Below, in pieces: positions 32,921 through 44,452 of a stretch of 64,000 nucleotides of DNA. This stretch comes from an uncultured Flavobacteriales bacterium. Its GTDB lineage: Bacteria; Bacteroidota; Bacteroidia; Flavobacteriales_D; Crocinitomicaceae. Each line of letters begins with the position of its first letter. Position 1 is the first letter of the stretch. The stretch spans positions 240-64,239 of the forward strand of contig CAJQJL010000029.1 in the NCBI GenBank assembly GCA_905478665.1. The letters run 5' to 3'. The translations under genes and the position numbers were made by a program. The notes beneath the pieces were generated by a model, which was not told the DNA's origin, searched no databases, and was given only the letters and a program-made list of their open reading frames with translations.

Positions 32921-33838
32921 ATGATTTCAGTTCAACAAATGCATTATATCCTCGTTTTGAGCGAAGAACTTCATTTTCAAAGAGCAAGCGAGCGGTGTTT
33001 TGTGACGCAACCCACACTTTCCATGCAAATCAAGAAAGCGGAAGAAACGTTGGAAGCACAGATTTTTGATCGTTCTCGGAATCCATTGGAATTGACAGGG
33101 TTCGGTAAAGATTTACTGTTAATCATTCGAGATACGCTCAATGAGTACGGGAAAATTTCAGAGTTGTCCAATAAGACGAAAGGAACGTATAAGGAGGAAA
33201 TCAGAATGGGGATTATTCCAACAGTTGCAGGATACATGCTGCCCGATTTGTATACTTCATGGAACGAGGAGTTGAGTGATGTACAATTGACGATTGAAGA
33301 GTTAAAAACGGAGGAAATTCTTAAAGCTTTTGACCAGAATAAACTAGATATTGGAATTCTTGCCGGGCCTGTTCAAGATCCCAGATTGCGCACTGTACCA
33401 CTTTATCAGGAGGAGATTAAAGTTTTTTACCCTGAAGGAAAAGGTAAATCAATCTCTGTTGAAGAGTTAAAGAGCGTGCATCCTTGGTTGCTAACATCGG
33501 GCAATTGTTTACGGACACAAATGATGAATTTTTGTGAGTTGAGAGACAATGTTAGGGATGAATGGGATTATGAAGGAGGAAACATCGAATTGCTGCAAAG
33601 AATGGTGCAATTACATGGTGGCTACACCTTAGTTCCAGAGAATTATATTGGTGAAAAATCGGATGACTACAAGCAGGTGAAATCAGTTATTGGTGGAGCG
33701 CCTGCAAGAGAAATAATTGCACTTACATCCAATAGAACAACAAAGTGGAGTACGCTTGAACGACTCATACGAAATGTACAGTTGAAGTATTCGCAAAGCG
33801 CTGATTCGATGAATTATCAGTTGCTCAACTGGCAGTAA
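32921..33838 (+). CDS. oxyR: LysR-family peroxide-sensing regulator OxyR
   Basis: 305 aa with N-terminal HTH (FQRASERCFVTQPTLSMQIKKAEETL). It is divergent from dps-ahpC. A Cys in the TSGNCLRTQ context resembles the OxyR sensing Cys. Confidence 0.75.
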   Translation: MISVQQMHYILVLSEELHFQRASERCFVTQPTLSMQIKKAEETLEAQIFDRSRNPLELTGFGKDLLLIIRDTLNEYGKISELSNKTKGTYKEEIRMGIIPTVAGYMLPDLYTSWNEELSDVQLTIEELKTEEILKAFDQNKLDIGILAGPVQDPRLRTVPLYQEEIKVFYPEGKGKSISVEELKSVHPWLLTSGNCLRTQMMNFCELRDNVRDEWDYEGGNIELLQRMVQLHGGYTLVPENYIGEKSDDYKQVKSVIGGAPAREIIALTSNRTTKWSTLERLIRNVQLKYSQSADSMNYQLLNWQ

Positions 33839-35036
33839 GATGCTTCCAGATTTTATCAGCAGCACCCTTGTTCTTCTCTACAAAACTGGTTGTCGTTGAA
33901 GAGATTTCTGCATGTCTTTCTTGAATTTTTTGATAGGCAAAATCAAACTCTTCTGTTGTTGAAACTGAAAAACCAATTCCCAGTTCAATGAACTGTTGAG
34001 CTTCTGGAAAACGCGAATGTTTTGGACCAAATATAACGGGGAGACCGAAAACAGCGGGCTCTAATATGTTGTGCAGACTCCCAGAAAATCCACCGCCGAT
34101 ATAAGCAAGGTCGCCGTATGAATATGCATTGGAAAGTTGCCCGATTGTATCCAAAATGAGCACTTTATTTTCAGAAAGATCCCTCCCGTCTGCCTCTGTG
34201 TATCGGATAGCATCTGGAATGTTCGAAAGAATACCTTTTACATGTGTTTCATCAACATTATGTGGCGCGATGAGGACTTTTCCACCTTGCTTATTAATCC
34301 AAGGAACAAGAATTTTTTCGTCTTCTGGCCATGAACTACCAACAATGAGCAATGGTTCTGAATTTTTAAAACTAGCGATGAGAGAATTTTCCTGCACATG
34401 TGCTTTATTTTCCAGAACTCGATCGAAACGACTGTCACCAGAAATAGACACGCGATCAATATGCACGGAATTCAACAGTTTTTTTGACTGTTCATTTTGA
34501 ACAAAGAACCAATCGAATTGTTCCAATGTCTTTCTAAAGAAGCCGCCATACCATTTAAAAAAACGATGATCTTCTCTGAATAACCCACTGATGTTATAAA
34601 TTTTAGAGCCACTTTTTTTCGCAGCGAAAATTAGATTCGACCAAAATTCATATTTAACGAAAATGATTTTTGACGGTTGAAAATGGTTTATAAAGTGCTT
34701 CGCGTTTTTGGGTGTGTCGAGTGGAATATACATTACATGATCTGCCTTATGATCACGTTTGTGTTGAAAGTTCATTCCTGATGGAGAGAAGAAGGTAACG
34801 AGCAAATAAGTTGATGGAGATTCCGCTTTTATTTTCGCCATGAGCGGAAGTCCCTGGTCAAATTCGCCCAATGACGCGCAATGGAACCAGATCACTTCTT
34901 TTCCTGTTACGTCAGGTAGATTACTAAATAAATTTTTTCTGCCTACTATCCAATCTTTGGCTTTGGTATTAAACAACGAAGTAATTCGAATAGCAATGCC
35001 ATAGAAGAAGATGCCTATGTTGTACAGAAAGTGCAT
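33825..35036 (-). CDS. kdtA: 3-deoxy-D-manno-octulosonic acid (Kdo) transferase
   Basis: 403 aa with the WFHCASLGEFDQGLPL motif and a GT30 fold pattern. Its 3' end overlaps the convergent oxyR by 14 nt. Confidence 0.85.
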   Translation of the reverse strand: MHFLYNIGIFFYGIAIRITSLFNTKAKDWIVGRKNLFSNLPDVTGKEVIWFHCASLGEFDQGLPLMAKIKAESPSTYLLVTFFSPSGMNFQHKRDHKADHVMYIPLDTPKNAKHFINHFQPSKIIFVKYEFWSNLIFAAKKSGSKIYNISGLFREDHRFFKWYGGFFRKTLEQFDWFFVQNEQSKKLLNSVHIDRVSISGDSRFDRVLENKAHVQENSLIASFKNSEPLLIVGSSWPEDEKILVPWINKQGGKVLIAPHNVDETHVKGILSNIPDAIRYTEADGRDLSENKVLILDTIGQLSNAYSYGDLAYIGGGFSGSLHNILEPAVFGLPVIFGPKHSRFPEAQQFIELGIGFSVSTTEEFDFAYQKIQERHAEISSTTTSFVEKNKGAADKIWKHLTAS

Positions 35037-35833
35037 TAATTGTAGTAAAATTCCTTAGGCATACGCTTGTAGATAGGAATCAGCCACGCTACTCGGAAAC
35101 CGTATTGAAAGTCCAAACGCATATCAGTAGATACTGGTGTGTCTGGCTGATCGAAGAATACAGTTCTACGGTTGTACGTAAATCCTTGCTGCGCATAAAA
35201 CCCACCGTAAAAATTGAAAACCCCATGATTGGCCATGAAGGAGTATCCCACAAATTCCTGAATGTTGAGTCCTGAAGTCAAGCGGTCGTAGCCTTTTCTG
35301 TAATCCAATTCGATTTGTGGTACTACGTGGTCTTGTGTTTCGATTCTCAACTTATGAGCGACATAACCAGCTCCAAGACTCAAATAGATTCCTGAATTCT
35401 TGTTTGGGCTTAGCACGGGAATAATTTTTCCAACATTTCCATTGACGTGAAATCCTCTCGCTGCAACACGTACTGAGGCTATATCACCATTGATATCCGT
35501 AATATTTCCTTTTGAATCTAACAAGTGATCAAACAACCCTTCTACTTTCACATCATTCCCGAAAATGAAACTTCCATCGACACCAAAAACCCAGTTCTTA
35601 TTTGTTTTGTAGCCTGCGAACATTCCCAAATGGTTCAGTAAACCGAAACGATCTGCCAAATCCCCACCCGTCCAGTTGAGTCCATAATGAACACTAATCC
35701 ACGGAGTTCCAATTACGGAGTCGCTAACGTTTCGTTGTGCGTTACCATTGAAAGAGAGGAGTATTACAAAAAGTACTAGACCAGATAAAGAGCGTATATT
35801 CATTAGTTTTCGAGTGTTCATGCAGTTCTCCAC
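35036..35833 (-). CDS. Hypothetical outer-membrane beta-barrel protein
   Basis: 265 aa with a signal peptide (...LVLFVILLSFNGNAQ), alternating-pattern beta strands and a C-terminal aromatic-rich end (EFYYN). Confidence 0.4.
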   Translation of the reverse strand: MENCMNTRKLMNIRSLSGLVLFVILLSFNGNAQRNVSDSVIGTPWISVHYGLNWTGGDLADRFGLLNHLGMFAGYKTNKNWVFGVDGSFIFGNDVKVEGLFDHLLDSKGNITDINGDIASVRVAARGFHVNGNVGKIIPVLSPNKNSGIYLSLGAGYVAHKLRIETQDHVVPQIELDYRKGYDRLTSGLNIQEFVGYSFMANHGVFNFYGGFYAQQGFTYNRRTVFFDQPDTPVSTDMRLDFQYGFRVAWLIPIYKRMPKEFYYN

Positions 35834-35930: not shown

Positions 35931-37091
35931 TTACGGTGCTTTCCGCTTCAATTTCCCAAATAACCAAATAAACCTGGAGAACACATGATTGAGGAAAAAT
36001 AGGCTATCCGGAAAGGCGAATATTTGCCAGTTTTTTGGCCGAACGTTTCGGGAAAATATACTGCCAATTAGCCCTCGAATACCACTGATAGAATAATGAA
36101 CCTTGTGGTTATACAGCGTAGTTCTCCATCGACTTTTTTTGCGATCCATTGATGTGTTTGCAGCGATTTCCCGAAGTGAAATCTGGACAATTCTTTTTGA
36201 AAAACGATCCGCATCTTTCGTAATCTTTTCTGGAACATCAAAACCATAGAGTTCAGACAGTAGGAGCAGGGATGCATTCAAGCAAACACGTGCTTCTGAG
36301 ATTTCGGTAGCTGCATAGAGGGCGTCAATTTCATCGAGTGATATCTGTCCAAAAAGACGGTGTAAATCGGTCAACCACTGAAGGCGAAAAAAGCTATGCA
36401 AAGCACCGTGCATGCACAGATACTGTAGTTGATGTTCCTTCGATAATGTACGAATCGCACCACCAGCGAAGGGGATAACTGTTGATTTAGACCAAAGCTC
36501 TTCCGCGGAGATTGAGTTTCCTTTCGAGGAACTGAGCTTCCAATGGAGTTCAAGCAATACGTTCTCATCAGAATGATAGAGCTCCATATGGTGATAATGT
36601 TTGACAATCGCCTGTTTCTGCTTTGGTGTTGAAAATTTTGTCAAGAGTTCATACCCAAGTTCCTTTAAAATGGCCAGTGACGGATCAAGTTGATCTACCC
36701 GAATAAAGATGTCCAGATCGCGTGAAGTTCGCTCACTTGGATCGTTGTAAATCTCTTGACTCAATACAGGTCCCTTGAGCGCTAGATGGTCAATATTTTG
36801 GCTCGAAAACGCCTTATTGATTTTGATCAATTCGGCAGCAAACTTTAATTGGGTAAACTTGTTCGCACTGTAAATTCCATTGAGTTTCTCTTGTAAACCT
36901 CCTTCAGAAAAAGTGGACAACGGGCCTCTTACTTGCGAAATGATCCGATGCGTTTGAATTAATTCGATGAGCTTTGTTTCGCTGATACCTGCTAGTTGCG
37001 TAGAATCTGTGGGGCCCTTGTTGGAAAGACAATTTAAAAGAAGCTGGAGCTCTTTAGAAAATGAAACGCTGCTATTTGGATGTGAAGCCAT
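35931..37091 (-). CDS. NTP_transf_5-like nucleotidyltransferase (lasso-peptide tailoring candidate)
   Basis: The ORF-track version extends to 37172 and overlaps PqqD. The Met at 37091 (MASHPNSS...) lies 12 nt after the PqqD stop. LALKGPVL...SRDLDIFI and ELHWKL match the pattern of the uncharacterised nucleotidyltransferase family seen in RiPP clusters. Confidence 0.65.
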   Translation of the reverse strand: MASHPNSSVSFSKELQLLLNCLSNKGPTDSTQLAGISETKLIELIQTHRIISQVRGPLSTFSEGGLQEKLNGIYSANKFTQLKFAAELIKINKAFSSQNIDHLALKGPVLSQEIYNDPSERTSRDLDIFIRVDQLDPSLAILKELGYELLTKFSTPKQKQAIVKHYHHMELYHSDENVLLELHWKLSSSKGNSISAEELWSKSTVIPFAGGAIRTLSKEHQLQYLCMHGALHSFFRLQWLTDLHRLFGQISLDEIDALYAATEISEARVCLNASLLLLSELYGFDVPEKITKDADRFSKRIVQISLREIAANTSMDRKKSRWRTTLYNHKVHYSISGIRGLIGSIFSRNVRPKNWQIFAFPDSLFFLNHVFSRFIWLFGKLKRKAP

Positions 37092-37102: not shown

Positions 37103-37402
37103 CTAAGTTACTTCGTTCACAAGTTTCATCTGAATCAACTCTTCCAAAAACAGAGTGACTTCCTGCGTGCAAGTAGCACGGTCAACGGCATATTCGTTAA
37201 GTAGTTCATCGCAAATTTCCTCTTTCGTTTTTGGTGTGTCGATGTATTCCCAAATACTCGAAGCGATTGAATTCATTGAGAAATATTTACCAAGATCGAT
37301 GTCTATCATTACCAACTCATCGTCTAATTTGCTGGCTACAGTATTCGGATTTTTGGCATATTTCTTCATTCTACTCTTCATCGTTAACCAGTAACTCATC
37401 AA
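37103..37402 (-). CDS. PqqD-family RiPP recognition element (lasso B1 protein)
   Basis: KNPNTVASKLDDELVMIDIDLGKYFSMNSIASSIWEYIDTPKTKEEICDELLNEYAVD...FLEELIQMKLV is a textbook PqqD/B1 pattern. The true start is probably Met at 37381 or 37369. Confidence 0.85.
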   Translation of the reverse strand: MMSYWLTMKSRMKKYAKNPNTVASKLDDELVMIDIDLGKYFSMNSIASSIWEYIDTPKTKEEICDELLNEYAVDRATCTQEVTLFLEELIQMKLVNEVT

Positions 37403-37901
37403 AGGACTCCTTCGATTTAAAGTACCGAACGAGTAATATACTAAGTAAATTTGTTTTCGCTCGAAGTACCTTGAACTCTTTTGAAGTGTGTTCTTTATTG
37501 GTGTTCACAAACTCAAGTACTTCTCGATAGCTTTTCGTTGTTTTACCCAATAGCTCTTCATACAACTCAAAAATTTCCTGCCGCTGACTCTTCGCTTCTT
37601 TTATGATGGAAAGGGCATTTGACTTTTCAATTTCGCCGCTGCTGAAGTTCTTGAGGAGTTTGCACTTGAAACTTGAACAAATCTTTGGCTTTTGTTTATC
37701 ATAAATGGTACATTTCTCATTAAAATGTGGGCAGGGCAGTTTGAAATAATCGCTTCCATCTATGTCGAATCTACTTTCTTCAAAATGGCCTGAAACCTTC
37801 TCGCCTGTACTTAAAGAAGCATACTCAAAAAGGGTATGATCACAGCAAAAACCACATGAGACGCAAATGGTTTGTTCATCTTGAGGAGGGTAGTTCGTCA
37901 T
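37371..37901 (-). CDS. YkgJ-family cysteine-cluster (CxxCxxCC) protein
   Basis: 176 aa with CVSCGFCC, then CPHFNEKCTIYDKQKPKICSSFKC (eight Cys in the UPF0153 arrangement), followed by a helical C-terminal half. Confidence 0.7.
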   Translation of the reverse strand: MTNYPPQDEQTICVSCGFCCDHTLFEYASLSTGEKVSGHFEESRFDIDGSDYFKLPCPHFNEKCTIYDKQKPKICSSFKCKLLKNFSSGEIEKSNALSIIKEAKSQRQEIFELYEELLGKTTKSYREVLEFVNTNKEHTSKEFKVLRAKTNLLSILLVRYFKSKESFDELLVNDEE

Positions 37902-37918: not shown

Positions 37919-39727
37919 CTATTTTTTAGAGTGAAAAGAAATTGTGAATTCATGAACCATCTTCACATAGGGAATGACCAAGAGAAGCTCCCTCGACAGT
38001 TTTTCTTCACTTTCGAGCGACTGTGTTATGTCCTCTTCCAAGGAATCAAAATCAAAGAAATTCAGGTACTCATTTTCTCGAAAGACATCCAATTCTTTAG
38101 AATATTCCCAATTGGCCTCCTGAAGAATATCATTAAACACTTTTCCGAACGCTGGATCGCCCTTTGACGGGAGGTAATTGACGTCATCAACGAGCCACTC
38201 TTTTCCAATTTCACGAATGAGATTCCTGTCTAATTTATCTTTAACAAAAAAGGTCGTCGGAAGTGTCAATACAAATTCAATAATTCGTTTGTCTAGCAAC
38301 GGGTAGCGATATTCCACGCCATTTCTCTGCCCTTTGGTATACCAATCTTCGCAGCGTTGAGCCAAGTGTTTATATTCGAGAAGGCCAATATGAATTCCTC
38401 TTCTTTTGGTATACGTGGAGCGTTTAATAGGATTCAACTTATTTGAGGGCATCCCTTTTTTTATGTATTTATGTAAGAATGGAGCAGTTTTGAAAATGAG
38501 GTAAGGAATTGTTCTGCTTGGAAAAAAAACATTCCCTACAAGTGAACGCACAAAGGCTTTCTTTTTAGGTAGCGGATGAATTTGAAGATACTTTCCCCAA
38601 TTTCCTCTCCAAAAAAGGTCATATTCCAGATAAGGTTTCCCCATGCTAATAAATTCATCTCCTCCCCAACCACTGAATAGAAGGTTCACGTTCTTTTCGT
38701 TGGCAGCCTTCAGTATGTTTTGCTCAAAAGTTGATTCGCTAGGAGCTCGCCAATCTTTCAAATGTGCGTGGTAGTCATCAATGGTGAAATTTGAGTAAAC
38801 GATTTTAATGTCACTCTTTTCGGCTTGTTGTTGAATGAGCTTGCGTTCATCAAAATTCAACTGATCCGCATCTATTTTGGTATCAGGACTCCAGGTGAAA
38901 CCGAAAAACAGCGCCTGATCTTTATACGCCATTCGGGAAATGGCTGAAACTAGACAAGAATCCAAGCCCCCGCTGATATGCGTTCCTGCTGTATAACGCT
39001 TATCACTTCTGTTGTGAACACTGGAGAGAACGATTTTGCGAAGTTCTTTTATAGCCTCGTCGTAGTTCCATTTTTTTTGTTTGATGCGTTCAGGAAACCA
39101 ATATTTTTTTTGCGTATGACCGTTTACATCAATCTCGGCATAGCTACCTGGTACAATTTTGACAACGTTCTTATTCGGTGTAAAGGCGAAATTCTCTTCA
39201 AAATGATAAAATGAGGAAATGATGTACTCGTGATCGATTTTTTCGTTACCAAAAAGGGCTTTTGTCATTCCCATCGTGTCCGAACTAAAGAAGAGTGCAT
39301 CGTCTTTTGTCGTAAATGAAAGTGGCATAATCCCCACATGGTCTTTTACCAAATAGAATTTGTCACACGAAAAATCGAAAATACAAATGGAAAATGCACC
39401 ATTGAACCCTTCTATAAAAGATAACTTATCGGTTGCAAATTTTGCAGCGATGATCTCTGGTAAGTTTGTTTGATTAGCACCAATACGTTCAGGGTTGTAA
39501 ATTTGTCCTTGAACGATGACAACACGTTCATTTTGTTCGTCAATATACCATGGTTGATATTCAGGGTGCGGAATGCGTGTGTCGCGAAGAAAGAACGTTC
39601 TGAGTCCTTTATAACTAAAGCTGGTTAATTCGGCCTCATCCCAATTGACGCCTGAAAGTAGTTTGTTTAGGGAATCATCCTGATTTTTGGAAAACTCACC
39701 AGTATATGAAACTGCTCCAAGAATCAT
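37919..39727 (-). CDS. Asparagine-synthetase-like lasso peptide cyclase (C protein)
   Basis: 602 aa with PP-loop GTHISGGLDSCLVSAI. The N-terminal Ntn-like domain lacks the catalytic Cys2 (MILGAV...). Its start codon abuts the precursor stop (TAAATG). Confidence 0.85.
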   Translation of the reverse strand: MILGAVSYTGEFSKNQDDSLNKLLSGVNWDEAELTSFSYKGLRTFFLRDTRIPHPEYQPWYIDEQNERVVIVQGQIYNPERIGANQTNLPEIIAAKFATDKLSFIEGFNGAFSICIFDFSCDKFYLVKDHVGIMPLSFTTKDDALFFSSDTMGMTKALFGNEKIDHEYIISSFYHFEENFAFTPNKNVVKIVPGSYAEIDVNGHTQKKYWFPERIKQKKWNYDEAIKELRKIVLSSVHNRSDKRYTAGTHISGGLDSCLVSAISRMAYKDQALFFGFTWSPDTKIDADQLNFDERKLIQQQAEKSDIKIVYSNFTIDDYHAHLKDWRAPSESTFEQNILKAANEKNVNLLFSGWGGDEFISMGKPYLEYDLFWRGNWGKYLQIHPLPKKKAFVRSLVGNVFFPSRTIPYLIFKTAPFLHKYIKKGMPSNKLNPIKRSTYTKRRGIHIGLLEYKHLAQRCEDWYTKGQRNGVEYRYPLLDKRIIEFVLTLPTTFFVKDKLDRNLIREIGKEWLVDDVNYLPSKGDPAFGKVFNDILQEANWEYSKELDVFRENEYLNFFDFDSLEEDITQSLESEEKLSRELLLVIPYVKMVHEFTISFHSKK

Positions 39728-39868
39728 TTAGCTTCCTGGTCCCTTTCCTATTTCTTTTTTGAAAATCCATACCAACCACGAGGTATCCTCCTTTATGTTA
39801 AGGACTTTAACTTCAGGCGTTTTCCACTCTTTTTTTTCAGAGTTTGGTATATTCTTATCTGTATGCAT
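39728..39868 (-). CDS. Candidate lasso peptide precursor (46 aa), not in the ORF track
   Basis: Manual reverse-complement translation gives MHTDKNIPNSEKKEWKTPEVKVLNIKEDTSWLVWIFKKEIGKGPGS*. The leader carries a W-x-x-P-x-V...T-x pattern like the YxxPxL...Tx motif bound by B1 proteins. There is a single acidic residue (E39) in the putative core and a C-terminal Ser. It sits between B2 and C. Confidence 0.6.
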   Translation of the reverse strand: MHTDKNIPNSEKKEWKTPEVKVLNIKEDTSWLVWIFKKEIGKGPGS

Positions 39869-39956
39869 ATGTCTACATCTAATTACGCTAAGTTACGACT
39901 TTTTTTGAGAAGTTGGCGATGACGGTATTCACCTCGTTACTACGGTGTTTTGAATA

Positions 39957-41202: not shown

Positions 41203-41207
41203 ATCTT

Positions 41208-43589
41208 TTAGGAACGGCGCTTGAATAATTTAGAGTGCCATTTGGTCTTTTCTTGCACACCATATCCATATCCATAGCCGTAACCGTATCCATATCTGCC
41301 AGAGGAACTTGTTTCAACCGCATTAATAACAACTCCAATATTTTTGACCTTGCCCTCGTCTCTCAATTGTTCGGGTATAGCGAGCAACTTCTTCTCGATG
41401 TAATTTGCACGTGCAACATAGATAAACGCATCGGCAAGGTTACTAACAAGTAGGGTGTCTGTTACCAAGCCCACGGGCGCCGTATCCACGATAATAATGT
41501 CAAAATTTTCTTTCAGATATGCGAAGAGTTGTTGGATTTCATCGCGCATCAAAATTTCTGCAGGGTTGGGTGGTGTAACTCCAGATGATAGGAAGTATAA
41601 ACCTTCTGTTACAGGCGAGGGCACAAATAAGGAATCAATGGGTAGTGAATCATCAAGCACGTAGTCTGTGACACCTTTGCTTTTTGGAAGACCAGCATAC
41701 TCAAACAATTTTGGGGCACGTAAGTCAAGTTCAACACAGACTGTTTTTTTACCAGTTAGCGCATAAGATGTACCGAGGTTCAGAGCAACAAATGATTTAC
41801 CTTCTTTTGCAATGGTAGATGTTGTAAGAATGATCTTCCCTGCTCCAGTATCTGAACCAAGAACAAAGCTTGTATTTGTTCTAAGAATACGAAATGCCTC
41901 CGCAGCTGAAGTTGTATTCCCCTTTGAAATCACAAGTTTTTGACTGCCATCTACTTTTGGGATATTTGCCAAATGAGGGAGATTATGTTTTTCCAAATCT
42001 TCTCGGCCTTTGACCTTATTGTCTAGTAGGTCACGAAGATAAATGGAAGAGAACGGAATAAACAGCCCGAAGAATATTGCCAATGCGTAGTGTATTTTTT
42101 TGTTGGGAGATGTTGCTTTTCCATTGCTGAATGCTGATTCAATGATTTTTGAATTCCCCTCCGTTACGGCTGATGCGATTTCGTTCTCTTCACGTTTTTG
42201 CAACAAGTAAACGTAGAGCGATTCCTTTACAAGCTGCTGTCGTTCAATTGAACGTAATACACGCTTGTGCTTTGGCAGATTTGCGATGTCTTGACCAAGA
42301 CCAGTGTCCATGGCACGTAAAACATCAACCTCCATTTTTAGTGAAGATTTGAGATTTATTAAACTCGCATTTAGACTTGATTTGATGCTCTGAAGGTCAC
42401 TTTCCACTTTTATTACTGCTGGGTTCCGCCCACTGGACTGACTCAGCAAGCGCTTTTTTTCAAGAGCCAATTTATTGTATTCATGCGCCGCATCGTTAAT
42501 TGAAATATCCTCAAAACCTAAATTGGTCGGCAATAGGTTGTCATTTCCATGCTGTTCTATGAGGTATTCATGCAGAAAGTTGACTAGCTCTAGTTGGATT
42601 TGAGCATCAATTAATTTCTTTTCATTCACGAGTGTACGATCGTAAAGTGATTTCTCATTCATTAGAATATCAGAGAAATCATATTGGGTCATGTATTTTT
42701 CTCCGTCAATTTCAACGTCTGAAAGTTCATCCGCAATAGCTCCTATTCGTTCATTAATAAATGTGGTAGTATTTTTGTATACTGCTTTTTGATCTCGAAT
42801 CGTCCGTTCGGTGTGCTCGATTATTAAGGTGTCGAGAAAATCGTTGTTCTTTTCAATTACAGGTCCGCTGATGCTCAATTGGAGAATATCAACGTTCTCA
42901 TTCATCGGTTCAATTTTTAATTTCGATTGAAAAATACTAACGGTAGTTTCTATCGGAACCATGGTAACCGCAATTTGAATTGATCCATGTTTTGCCTTAT
43001 AGAAATCAGTTTTGTGGATGTAGAATTTTCCTATTGAAGCTTGCAAAGTGTCACCAAAAGAGTAGGTTTTATTTCCAAAGGTTTTGGAATCAATGAACTT
43101 GAATGATTTTGCATTGAGAACCTCGATATTGAAAGTGGTGGTTGTCTTTAATTCAAGCGAATCATTTAGACGAATAATTTCTATAGGCGAATTTTTATAA
43201 AATTCCTTACGTTCAATACCCGTCTTCGAACCGATGAGGTAATATTGGGTATTCAGGTCGAGCTTTTCAATAACGCTACGGAGTAAAGGTCTGGAGCTTA
43301 AAACTTCCCGTTCGTTATAAAGGTTGTTGTACCTGCCAATACCATCAAACATACCAAGATCTTGAAACGCTGACAGCTCTGAGTAAGCACCCGTCTTTTC
43401 AAATTGAATCAACAATTTTGTTTTTGATTCATAGATTTTGGGTGTATATCGCAAAACAAAGAATGCAACTGTCAGGGTGGTAAGCAACGAAAGTGCAAAC
43501 CATTTCCAGCGAGAGGTATATTTTAGTAGTAGCTCCCTTAAATTAAGCTCGTCATCGAACTCGTGATTTTTTTCTCGTTTACTCCCCAA
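41208..43589 (-). CDS. wzc: Polysaccharide co-polymerase / tyrosine autokinase (Wzc/PCP-2a)
   Basis: 793 aa with the two-TM Wzz-like domain and coiled coils. Cytoplasmic P-loop TSTIAKEGKSFVALNLG with IIIVDTAP, and a C-terminal Tyr cluster RYGYGYGYGYGYG. Confidence 0.88.
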   Translation of the reverse strand: MGSKREKNHEFDDELNLRELLLKYTSRWKWFALSLLTTLTVAFFVLRYTPKIYESKTKLLIQFEKTGAYSELSAFQDLGMFDGIGRYNNLYNEREVLSSRPLLRSVIEKLDLNTQYYLIGSKTGIERKEFYKNSPIEIIRLNDSLELKTTTTFNIEVLNAKSFKFIDSKTFGNKTYSFGDTLQASIGKFYIHKTDFYKAKHGSIQIAVTMVPIETTVSIFQSKLKIEPMNENVDILQLSISGPVIEKNNDFLDTLIIEHTERTIRDQKAVYKNTTTFINERIGAIADELSDVEIDGEKYMTQYDFSDILMNEKSLYDRTLVNEKKLIDAQIQLELVNFLHEYLIEQHGNDNLLPTNLGFEDISINDAAHEYNKLALEKKRLLSQSSGRNPAVIKVESDLQSIKSSLNASLINLKSSLKMEVDVLRAMDTGLGQDIANLPKHKRVLRSIERQQLVKESLYVYLLQKREENEIASAVTEGNSKIIESAFSNGKATSPNKKIHYALAIFFGLFIPFSSIYLRDLLDNKVKGREDLEKHNLPHLANIPKVDGSQKLVISKGNTTSAAEAFRILRTNTSFVLGSDTGAGKIILTTSTIAKEGKSFVALNLGTSYALTGKKTVCVELDLRAPKLFEYAGLPKSKGVTDYVLDDSLPIDSLFVPSPVTEGLYFLSSGVTPPNPAEILMRDEIQQLFAYLKENFDIIIVDTAPVGLVTDTLLVSNLADAFIYVARANYIEKKLLAIPEQLRDEGKVKNIGVVINAVETSSSGRYGYGYGYGYGYGVQEKTKWHSKLFKRRS

Positions 43590-43592
43590 AAT

Positions 43593-44387
43593 TTATTTAA
43601 CAATTAGCACCAGCGTCGATACGATCAACGAGGTCGCAGAAATGACTATTCCCCCTGCTGAACGCAGAATGGACGCATCATATCGCGCTTTTCTATTCGG
43701 TTCTACGTAAACTACGTCATTCTGTTTCAAATAGTACACGGGAGATTGGAAAATTGCCGTAGTTGTAAGGTCGATTCGATATTCTTTTCTTTCACCGTTT
43801 TCATGTCGAATGACCAGCACATTCTTGCGTTCTCCTGTTATTTTTAAATCTTTTGCAATTCCAATAGCTTCAAGAATTGAGAGTCGTTCATTGGGAACAG
43901 AAAACGTCCCAGGGTTTTTTACTTCACCAAGCACTGTGATTTTAAAGTTGAGTATTCGTAGCGAGACACTAGGGGAATCGAGATATTCTCCAACAACTCT
44001 TTCAACTTCTTTTACCGCTGCATTACGATTTAAGCCCGCAAGTTTCACCTTCCCTACAATGGGAAGTGAAACCGTACTGTCTGGAGCAACCAAATAACCA
44101 TAAGTCGCGGGAATTCCATTTTCGTACGAACCTATTTGATTTCCTTGTCTCACAAGTTCTGCTTGGTTGAAAGGAGCCGCGATTTCATGATCAGCACCCG
44201 TTATTTCAATGGAAAGAACGTCTCCAATTTCTAAATGTGGTGTAAGGTATTGATCAATGTTTTCAATGCTACCATCTCCCGCCTGAAAATAAACAAGCTT
44301 TTTACGATTAACACAAGATCCAAAGATTAGAGGCGCGATCAGTAGTAGAGTGATCATCATTCTCGTACTTGACATAGTTATCAACAT
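43593..44387 (-). CDS. wza: Polysaccharide export outer-membrane lipoprotein (Wza/OPX)
   Basis: Poly_export pattern (GDVLSIEI...) followed by an SLBB-like domain (ITVLGEVKNPG), with lipobox LIFGSC. The ORF-track start (44444) would leave 8 bp to the divergent wbaP, so an internal Met (44387/44375/44360) is more plausible. Confidence 0.82.
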   Translation of the reverse strand: MLITMSSTRMMITLLLIAPLIFGSCVNRKKLVYFQAGDGSIENIDQYLTPHLEIGDVLSIEITGADHEIAAPFNQAELVRQGNQIGSYENGIPATYGYLVAPDSTVSLPIVGKVKLAGLNRNAAVKEVERVVGEYLDSPSVSLRILNFKITVLGEVKNPGTFSVPNERLSILEAIGIAKDLKITGERKNVLVIRHENGERKEYRIDLTTTAIFQSPVYYLKQNDVVYVEPNRKARYDASILRSAGGIVISATSLIVSTLVLIVK

Positions 44388-44400
44388 TTTAATGTAAAAC

Positions 44401-44408
44401 CAAAAATA
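44401..44408 (-). promoter_or_regulatory. Candidate -7 box TATTTTTG for wza-wzc (and possibly the lasso operon)
   Basis: Plus-strand CAAAAATA is minus-strand TATTTTTG (TAnnTTTG), 14 nt upstream of the internal Met at 44387. Confidence 0.3.
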
Positions 44409-44452
44409 GTAGAATAATCCACGGTAAGGTAAATCTTCATACATTTATCACG

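Follow-up and report, generated by a model that had tools for sequence, protein, structure and literature searches.

The locus described here raises the question of whether a short gap between two predicted lasso-peptide biosynthesis genes, those of the leader peptidase (B2) and of the cyclase (C), encodes the precursor peptide of the pathway and, if so, what product would be made from it. The gap (positions 39728–39956, 229 bp) is located in a 64,000-nucleotide stretch of DNA of an uncultured Flavobacteriales bacterium (family Crocinitomicaceae), which was analysed as a whole and is referred to below as the window, and it is mostly filled by an ORF of 46 codons. Tietz 2017 (cited in PMC7533575) drew attention to Bacteroidota as a source of lasso peptides that has been underexplored. 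No characterised lasso peptide from this phylum was found in the literature searched, an absence that is not in itself proof.

A small gene within a lasso gene cluster

The ORF is part of a complete and tightly packed set of genes located on the same strand, in the order kinase, B2, precursor (A), C, CxxCxxCC protein, B1 and NTP_transf_5 nucleotidyltransferase (Table 1). This order matches the public gene calls, from which the gene starts, including that of B2, were taken. For the putative kinase, cyclase and B1 proteins, the scores do not reach the curated cut-offs that NCBIfam sets for the characterised subfamilies. The B2 protein contains a candidate catalytic triad composed of residues C78, H113 and D129. 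In a sequence search the kinase matched solved HPr kinase structures weakly, and no informative match to a solved structure was obtained for the nucleotidyltransferase or the CxxCxxCC protein.

Table 1. Positions in the window of the predicted lasso-peptide genes and of the parts of the precursor, with the evidence for each.
Feature	Position	Strand	Evidence or details
HPr-kinase-like kinase, 280 aa	40360..41202	(-)	Pfam and NCBIfam HprK matches, below cut-offs; H91, Walker A G106–S113 (K111), D129–D130
B2 leader peptidase, 136 aa	39957..40367	(-)	Pfam Transglut_core3; NCBIfam lasso_biosyn_B2, 56.8 bits (cut-off 33)
Predicted lasso precursor gene (A)	39728..39868	(-)	46 codons + TAA, ATG start; family HMM match; synonymous excess in orthologues
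Predicted leader, residues 1–30	39779..39868	(-)	W15xxP18xV20 and T29 at −2; Thr spacing P+11
Predicted core, residues 31–46, WLVWIFKKEIGKGPGS	39731..39778	(-)	Predicted ring Trp1–Glu9, tail IGKGPGS; Ser16 likely phosphorylation site
Lasso cyclase C, 602 aa, asparagine-synthetase homologue	37919..39727	(-)	Pfam Asn_synthase, GATase_7; NCBIfam lass_lactam_cya E=1e-33, below cut-off
CxxCxxCC (PF03692) protein	37371..37901	(-)	Pfam 24.6 bits (cut-off 23); between cyclase and B1
B1, PqqD-type RiPP recognition element, 88 aa	37103..37369	(-)	Pfam PqqD E=2e-18; NCBIfam lasso_PqqD_Bac, 75.8 bits (cut-off 80)
NTP_transf_5 nucleotidyltransferase, 386 aa, PsmN-type, RDLD motif	35931..37091	(-)	Pfam PF14907 E=9e-45

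The lasso set is located directly behind wza and wzc (window 41203-44444 (-)) in a head-to-tail arrangement, with 5 nt separating wzc from the kinase gene. It is followed (33825-35821 (-)) by a gene for a protein of 261 aa, whose N-terminus resembles a signal peptide, and by a Kdo transferase gene. Among the flanking genes scanned, none was recognised as an exporter gene. The placement between wza/wzc and the Kdo transferase gene is kept in two related loci (L085 and L086), and the glycosyltransferase genes located further upstream differ between two contigs (L001 and L002) which bear the identical peptide.

The distribution of homologues of the CxxCxxCC protein, which were detected by tblastn in 54 of 85 related loci, marks it as a predicted conserved lasso accessory of this family. 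A similar Cys motif has been described for FliB, a [4Fe-4S] flagellin lysine methyltransferase (PMC8598068). Given the conserved Lys residues of the core peptide, a FliB-like role of the CxxCxxCC protein might be considered, by way of speculation. Its single-sequence AlphaFold2 model was poor (pLDDT 49.6).

Translation of the 46-codon ORF (39728..39868, (-)) gives MHTDKNIPNSEKKEWKTPEVKVLNIKEDTSWLVWIFKKEIGKGPGS*, and its TAA codon (39730–39728) directly abuts the ATG of the cyclase gene (39727–39725). The length of the ORF, the size of the gap and the adjoining stop and start codons are all present in the sequence exactly as stated in the initial annotation, which had described the ORF as unannotated. 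That description is correct as regards function but not as regards gene calling: genes for the identical 46-aa protein had already been called on 12 public contigs (NCBI, JGI, as 'hypothetical protein', ENA and Logan).

An ATG-initiated ORF of at least 46 aa was obtained in 8.6% of shuffles of the 229-bp gap, so the ORF by itself is not beyond chance, and its significance comes from homology and conservation. Promoter and terminator scans of the region 35.8–43.7 kb gave no more signals than shuffled sequences did and nothing of note close to the precursor gene, and neither a Shine-Dalgarno sequence nor a promoter signal was found for the ORF. Rfam and tRNA scans of the window gave no matches; the gap between the B2 and cyclase genes therefore corresponds to no known RNA element. 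Antisense to the precursor gene (window 39759-39908 (+)) there is a TTG-initiated ORF of 49 aa, which has no profile match and is presumably spurious.

Relatives of the precursor

Relatives of the window cyclase were scanned in one genome per GTDB species, and 80 loci, mostly from Bacteroidota (cyclase identity 27–39%), were kept. Just upstream of the cyclase gene, 71 of these loci contain a small ORF that shares the leader of the window peptide, and 76 unique precursors were obtained in total. A family HMM was built from these 76 cyclase-adjacent precursors, none of which comes from the lineage of the window. When it was run against the 1866 six-frame stop-to-stop segments of the window, the sole match was the precursor ORF (E=2.1e-8, 31 bits), with the runner-up segment at E=0.34. 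The other small ORFs of the window, none of which matches this profile, were ruled out as precursors. It had been considered in advance that the ORF might prove unconserved, or that a different small ORF might be the conserved one; it is kept in the homologous clusters and is the only profile match in the window. By this match the precursor is assigned to a large, uncharacterised family of predicted Bacteroidota lasso peptides.

The consensus of the 76 precursors is KKxWxKPxVxxLxIKKDT-x, followed by the core. The residue between the Thr and the core is variable (Phe, Tyr, Leu, Ser, Ala, Gly and others). The core starts with Ser in 35 precursors, Gly in 21 and Thr in 7, and with Trp in none of them. 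Its first acidic residue is found at position 8 in 43 precursors (42 Glu, 1 Asp), at position 9 in 23 (all Glu) and at position 7 in 8. A C-terminal Ser is present in 41 of the 76, and most family loci contain the kinase, nucleotidyltransferase and CxxCxxCC accessory genes.

The precursors of the Fibrella/Runella/Spirosoma type (e.g. …DTY/SNLLRSKKETGKGGG…PS; here and below the slash separates leader from core) have in common with the window peptide (i) the leader KKxWxKPxVxxLxIKxDT-x and the spacing between its Pro and Thr, (ii) Glu9 followed by x-G-K-G and (iii) a C-terminal Ser. Their loci, like the window cluster, encode a kinase, B1, B2, a CxxCxxCC protein and an NTP_transf_5 protein. In contrast, their cores start with Ser, Gly or Thr and are polar and Gly/Ser/Pro-rich, with longer tails, and none has Trp1 or an all-hydrophobic ring.

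Two other loci encode precursors with different cores. The Bacteroidota MAG BWSM_53 (L006 3420-3912 (+)) contains three precursors in tandem, whose hydrophobic cores follow the pattern E-V-I-I-H-K-K-E-V-S-P-N-W-S; such cores imply a ring of 8 residues that starts with Glu at position 1. The precursor of the Crocinitomicaceae UBA4466 (L089 2328-2525 (+)), whose cyclase is 47% identical to that of the window, has the sequence …KIKIDTA/NKKGSGKKDNWS and ends in Trp-Ser; its ring is predicted to be Asn1–Asp9. The contig apparently carries two lasso clusters in tandem.

Orthologues of the window peptide were identified in four closer lineages, with cyclases 58–67% identical to that of the window and with the same synteny (from wza/wzc to KdtA, LysR and ferritin genes). 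Their core is WLVW[I/L]FKKEIGKGPGS. Compared with the window, the core codons show 4–9 synonymous changes and one conservative replacement (I5L), and codons 15–46 show 11–16 synonymous and 3–5 non-synonymous changes; the precursor is thus under frame-specific purifying selection. One of the orthologues has no ATG start, and consequently no gene has been called there.

These comparisons bear on the explanation that the ORF arose by chance in the intergenic spacer and is not translated. Its length, reached in a fraction of the gap shuffles, the lack of a detected Shine-Dalgarno or promoter signal and the overlap with the antisense ORF are what such a frame might be expected to display. It is opposed by the match to the family HMM (E=2e-8), by the frame-specific excess of synonymous over non-synonymous changes in codons 15–46, by the presence of the same small gene 5′ of the cyclase gene in 71 of 80 distant loci and by the fact that the gap matches no Rfam family. 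A chance frame is highly improbable, and this explanation has effectively been refuted already. Homology and conservation together identify 39728..39868 as a genuine lasso-peptide precursor gene.

In two of the loci with orthologues (L086 and L087, from a related species) a second, diverged precursor, …KIKKDTS/WIKIAGGKEIGKGHTS, abuts the cyclase gene. This paralogue keeps W1, K8, E9, I10-G-K-G13 and S16 of the core, and positions 2–7 and 14–15 are changed. The two precursor genes of each locus (L086 5594-5734 and 5854-6000; L087 1362-1502 and 1626-1769) encode the cores WLVWLFKKEIGKGPGS and WIKIAGGKEIGKGHTS, the second of which has no ATG start and is not called as a gene.

When 1.84 billion representatives were searched exhaustively with HMMER, the only additions were the peptide P0129 and a chance match in a 2965-aa adhesin-like protein, and a metagenome scan for the peptide gave 2 loci, one of them already known. 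The Trp-first peptides obtained from all searches are that of the window itself (12 contigs), four orthologous ones, one paralogue and P0129, and this lineage appears to be rare. P0129 (L090 410-538 (+); MKATTNKKNWSTPAIQVLKINNDTAWWYWLQKGKGGKGGKGS; leader and core MKATTNKKNWSTPAIQVLKINNDTA/WWYWLQKGKGGKGGKGS, with the junction …DTA) is a distant homologue that shares the family leader. Its core has an aromatic head starting with Trp, a tail of Lys and Gly and a Ser at the C-terminus, and it contains neither Asp nor Glu, which makes a macrolactam impossible. The contig is 783 bp long and contains no cyclase gene in the 245 bp downstream of the peptide. Owing to this acceptor-less core, a small probability stays on non-lasso processing for the Trp-first sub-lineage.

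Leader, predicted cleavage site and ring

The initial annotation had likened the leader, with its WxxPxV…T-x residues and Thr at −2, to the motif recognised by B1 proteins. The residues W15-x-x-P18-x-V20 and T29 are indeed present in the translation, and T29 is located at P+11, the same spacing as that of the Thr in 71 of the 76 family precursors. A leader motif Y/W-x-x-P-x-L/V combined with a Thr at the penultimate leader position is a rule for lasso precursors, and Thr at −2 is an established recognition element for leader cleavage (PMC10368454). Residues 12–27 of the leader weakly match the NCBIfam model lasso_PadeA_fam (NF033524; 15 bits, E=0.015). This score is below the cut-off of 27, and by the curated model the peptide is therefore not a member of the paeninodin family.

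The location of T29 at the exact family spacing implies a cut after Ser30, with Trp31 as core position 1. The same cut, and the resulting core WLVWIFKKEIGKGPGS, had been put forward in the initial annotation, and they constitute the best-supported reading, based on the P+11 spacing, the register of E-x-G-K-G and the conservation in the paralogue. The motif E-[TVI]-G-[KQS]-G is located at P+21 both in the window peptide and in six Cytophagales precursors with Ser, Thr or Ala at core position 1.

B2 might instead cut one residue later, after Trp31, to release the core LVWIFKKEIGKGPGS with an 8-residue Leu1–Glu8 ring. Trp would then be an aromatic −1 residue, at a position where most relatives have Phe, Tyr or Leu, and the ring would close on Glu8, the commonest closer in the family (42 of 76). 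In addition, BsfA-type leaders place the Pro of YxxPxL at −14 (PMC10368454), a spacing which, if applied here, leads to W31. Against this, the later cut would move the Thr to −3, whereas in 71 of the 76 precursors it is found at P+11 and is followed by a single variable residue, which may be Ser. Moreover, E-x-G-K-G aligns at P+21 with that of canonical S/T/A1–E9 cores, and the Trp is kept in both the diverged paralogue and P0129, in which the preceding residue is Ser or Ala. We consider the cut after Trp31 to be quite improbable, and the core released after Ser30 is the one used below.

E39 (core position 9) is the sole acidic residue after T29, as the initial annotation had observed. The ring is probably the Trp1–Glu9 macrolactam that was proposed there: this prediction is supported by the Thr spacing, by the Glu register and by the invariance of Glu9 in the orthologues and the paralogue. 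The choice that had been attached to it, between a new ring chemistry and a wrong cleavage site, was a false dichotomy. Trp1–Glu9 macrolactams have been established experimentally in fusilassin (fuscanodin) and cellulassin (cellulonodin-1) (bioRxiv 10.1101/2020.11.25.399105; PMC12214591), and this linkage is not new chemistry. The ring of halolassin is Tyr1–Glu8 (bioRxiv 10.1101/2020.11.25.399105), and unusual first residues are still appearing, e.g. Asn1 of metanodin, reported in 2025. A further expectation, that 9-membered rings usually close on Asp, does not hold for this family, in which 23 of 23 predicted nine-residue rings close on Glu; Glu at position 9 is therefore normal here, and the argument that nine-residue rings should use Asp was rejected.

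Fusilassin and cellulassin, whose biosynthesis also involves a split recognition element, peptidase and cyclase, have the same ring start and ring closer as those predicted for the window peptide. They originate from a different phylum (Thermobifida/Actinobacteria) and have 18-aa cores with a hydrophobic tail, in which a large steric-lock residue (the upper plug, at position 16) is located near Pro-Arg (PMC12214591). Unlike the window peptide, they have no C-terminal Ser, and beyond W1 and E9 their cores show no similarity to the window core. Judged from these sequences, the fusilassin-type likeness is a resemblance in working, not membership. Fusilassin and cellulassin are not known to involve a tailoring kinase or nucleotidyltransferase.

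The window peptide is an outlier within its own family by virtue of Trp1, hydrophobic positions 1–6 and a short tail. Trp at core position 1 is found in 0 of the 76 relatives, and all six of the first six core positions are hydrophobic, compared with a maximum of three of six among these relatives. The 7-residue tail, IGKGPGS, contains no aromatic residue, Arg or Cys, and thus no classical steric-lock or plug residue and no disulfide. The empirical minima for lasso peptides are a loop of 3 and a tail of 2 residues (PMC12214591), which the loop-plus-tail of 7 satisfies. The core has no Ser or Thr other than Ser46 (Ser16 of the core), which every orthologue and the paralogue keep.

Proposed tailoring and topology of the predicted product

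The kinase, the nucleotidyltransferase and the C-terminal Ser, which were absent from the initial annotation, offer an explanation for the tail that it described as plug-poor. H91, K111, D129 and D130 of the kinase are the H-K-D-D residues, which are essential in lasso kinases; in the case of paeninodin, ThcoK and SyanK, the C-terminal Ser is phosphorylated on the linear precursor (PMC9266682). The paeninodin family (PadeA/PadeK; ThcoK, SyanK) has this kinase motif in common with the window, whereas its core is unrelated and its cluster order and accessory genes differ. Kinase homologues with an identity of at least 34% to that of the window were found in 29 of the 32 related loci with a C-terminal-Ser precursor, compared with 1 of the 22 without (Fisher p=8e-11). 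PsmN is required for the addition of a hexose to the phosphoserine of pseudomycoidin (PMC6993621), and the NTP_transf_5 protein is its counterpart in the window. Given an HPr-kinase-like enzyme, a PsmN-type nucleotidyltransferase and a C-terminal Ser, a paeninodin/pseudomycoidin-style modification is likely.

In the pathway proposed here, B1 (PqqD-type) would bind the leader via W15-x-x-P18-x-V20, in the manner of the PadeB1/PadeB2 system, in which the leader is bound by PadeB1 and handed to PadeB2 (PMC5067487). The substrate of the HPr-kinase-like enzyme would be the linear precursor, with the C-terminal Ser46 as the phosphorylated residue. A hexose may then be attached to the Ser46 phosphate by the PsmN-type nucleotidyltransferase. 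The B2 cysteine protease would recognise Thr29 at −2 and cut after Ser30, and the ATP-dependent cyclase would form the isopeptide bond (bioRxiv 10.1101/2020.11.25.399105), here between the α-amine of Trp31 and the Glu39 side chain. The expected product consists of a macrolactam of nine residues, W-L-V-W-I-F-K-K-E, followed by a tail of seven, I-G-K-G-P-G-S(P). The monoisotopic neutral masses calculated for W31–S46 are 1844.035 Da for the linear peptide, 1826.024 Da once cyclised, 1905.991 Da with HPO3 in addition and 2068.043 Da with HPO3 and hexose; a linear core starting at L32 would have 1657.96 Da. We infer these chemical steps and the topology solely by analogy with known systems. Taken as a whole, the gene is probably that of a class II-type lasso precursor with this pathway and product.

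In the absence of bulky tail residues, a threaded topology would most plausibly be locked by the C-terminal phospho(glycosyl) group. Such a modification might lock the tail, and the peptide may be a branched cycle when this group is missing. The closest parallel in this respect is pseudomycoidin (Bacillus pseudomycoides, psm cluster), which shares with the window an HprK-type kinase, an uncharacterised NTP transferase (PsmN) and a precursor ending in Ser. Its ring closes on residue 9, as predicted for the window peptide, and its tail is too slim to hold the thread, for which a C-terminal phospho-hexose lock was proposed by the authors (PMC6993621). We hypothesise that such a lock fits the window peptide even better. 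Unlike the window peptide, pseudomycoidin has Ala1 and a longer tail (at least 23 residues), and its cluster, from Bacillota, includes an ABC exporter (PsmD) and no CxxCxxCC gene. By analogy, the window peptide may work like a tailored lasso of the pseudomycoidin/paeninodin type with a fusilassin-type ring.

Alternatively, the peptide could be cleaved and cyclised, or only cleaved, without forming a stable threaded lasso, which would yield a branched-cyclic or linear, amphipathic, Lys-rich phosphopeptide. Several features of the lineage agree with this: the tail lacks any bulky residue, so that a large 9-residue Glu ring would have no classical plug; the hydrophobic head exceeds that of any of the 76 relatives, none of which starts with Trp; P0129, which has the same architecture, contains no ring acceptor; and unmodified pseudomycoidin was a branched cycle after purification (PMC6993621). 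They are opposed by the invariance of Glu9 in the orthologues and the paralogue, by the maintenance of the full B1/B2/C set and by a loop-plus-tail that meets the published minima, and the C-terminal modification could supply the lock. A non-threaded product seems unlikely, and a threaded lasso remains the preferred reading. A more specific version of the latter is put forward only tentatively and is rather doubtful in its entirety: the peptide could be the first characterised Bacteroidota lasso, with a Trp1–Glu9 ring that is hydrophobic or Lys only and a plug-free tail held solely by a phospho(glycosyl)serine, maybe with a further modification by the CxxCxxCC (Fe–S-type) protein.

The definition of the family by 76 precursors provides a working profile for the annotation of lasso precursors in Bacteroidota, and the window peptide is an entry point to this uncharacterised group. 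As the compositional extreme of the family (Trp1, all-hydrophobic positions 1–6 and a 7-residue plug-free tail), it would make a compact substrate for testing C-terminal phospho-glycosylation as a steric lock. In pseudomycoidin the phospho-hexose lock is a proposal, and the window peptide offers a test case.

Lasso kinases do not always act at the C-terminus, as BsfK phosphorylates Ser3 (PMC10368454). In approximately 22 loci of the family (L017–L082), kinase homologues with 27–33% identity (36% in one case) are located beside precursors that do not end in Ser. The cores encoded beside these lower-identity kinases are Gly/Pro-rich, e.g. SGSGTGPEGAGKGGPP…, and this arrangement points to a second subtype of kinase, whose acceptor site would differ.
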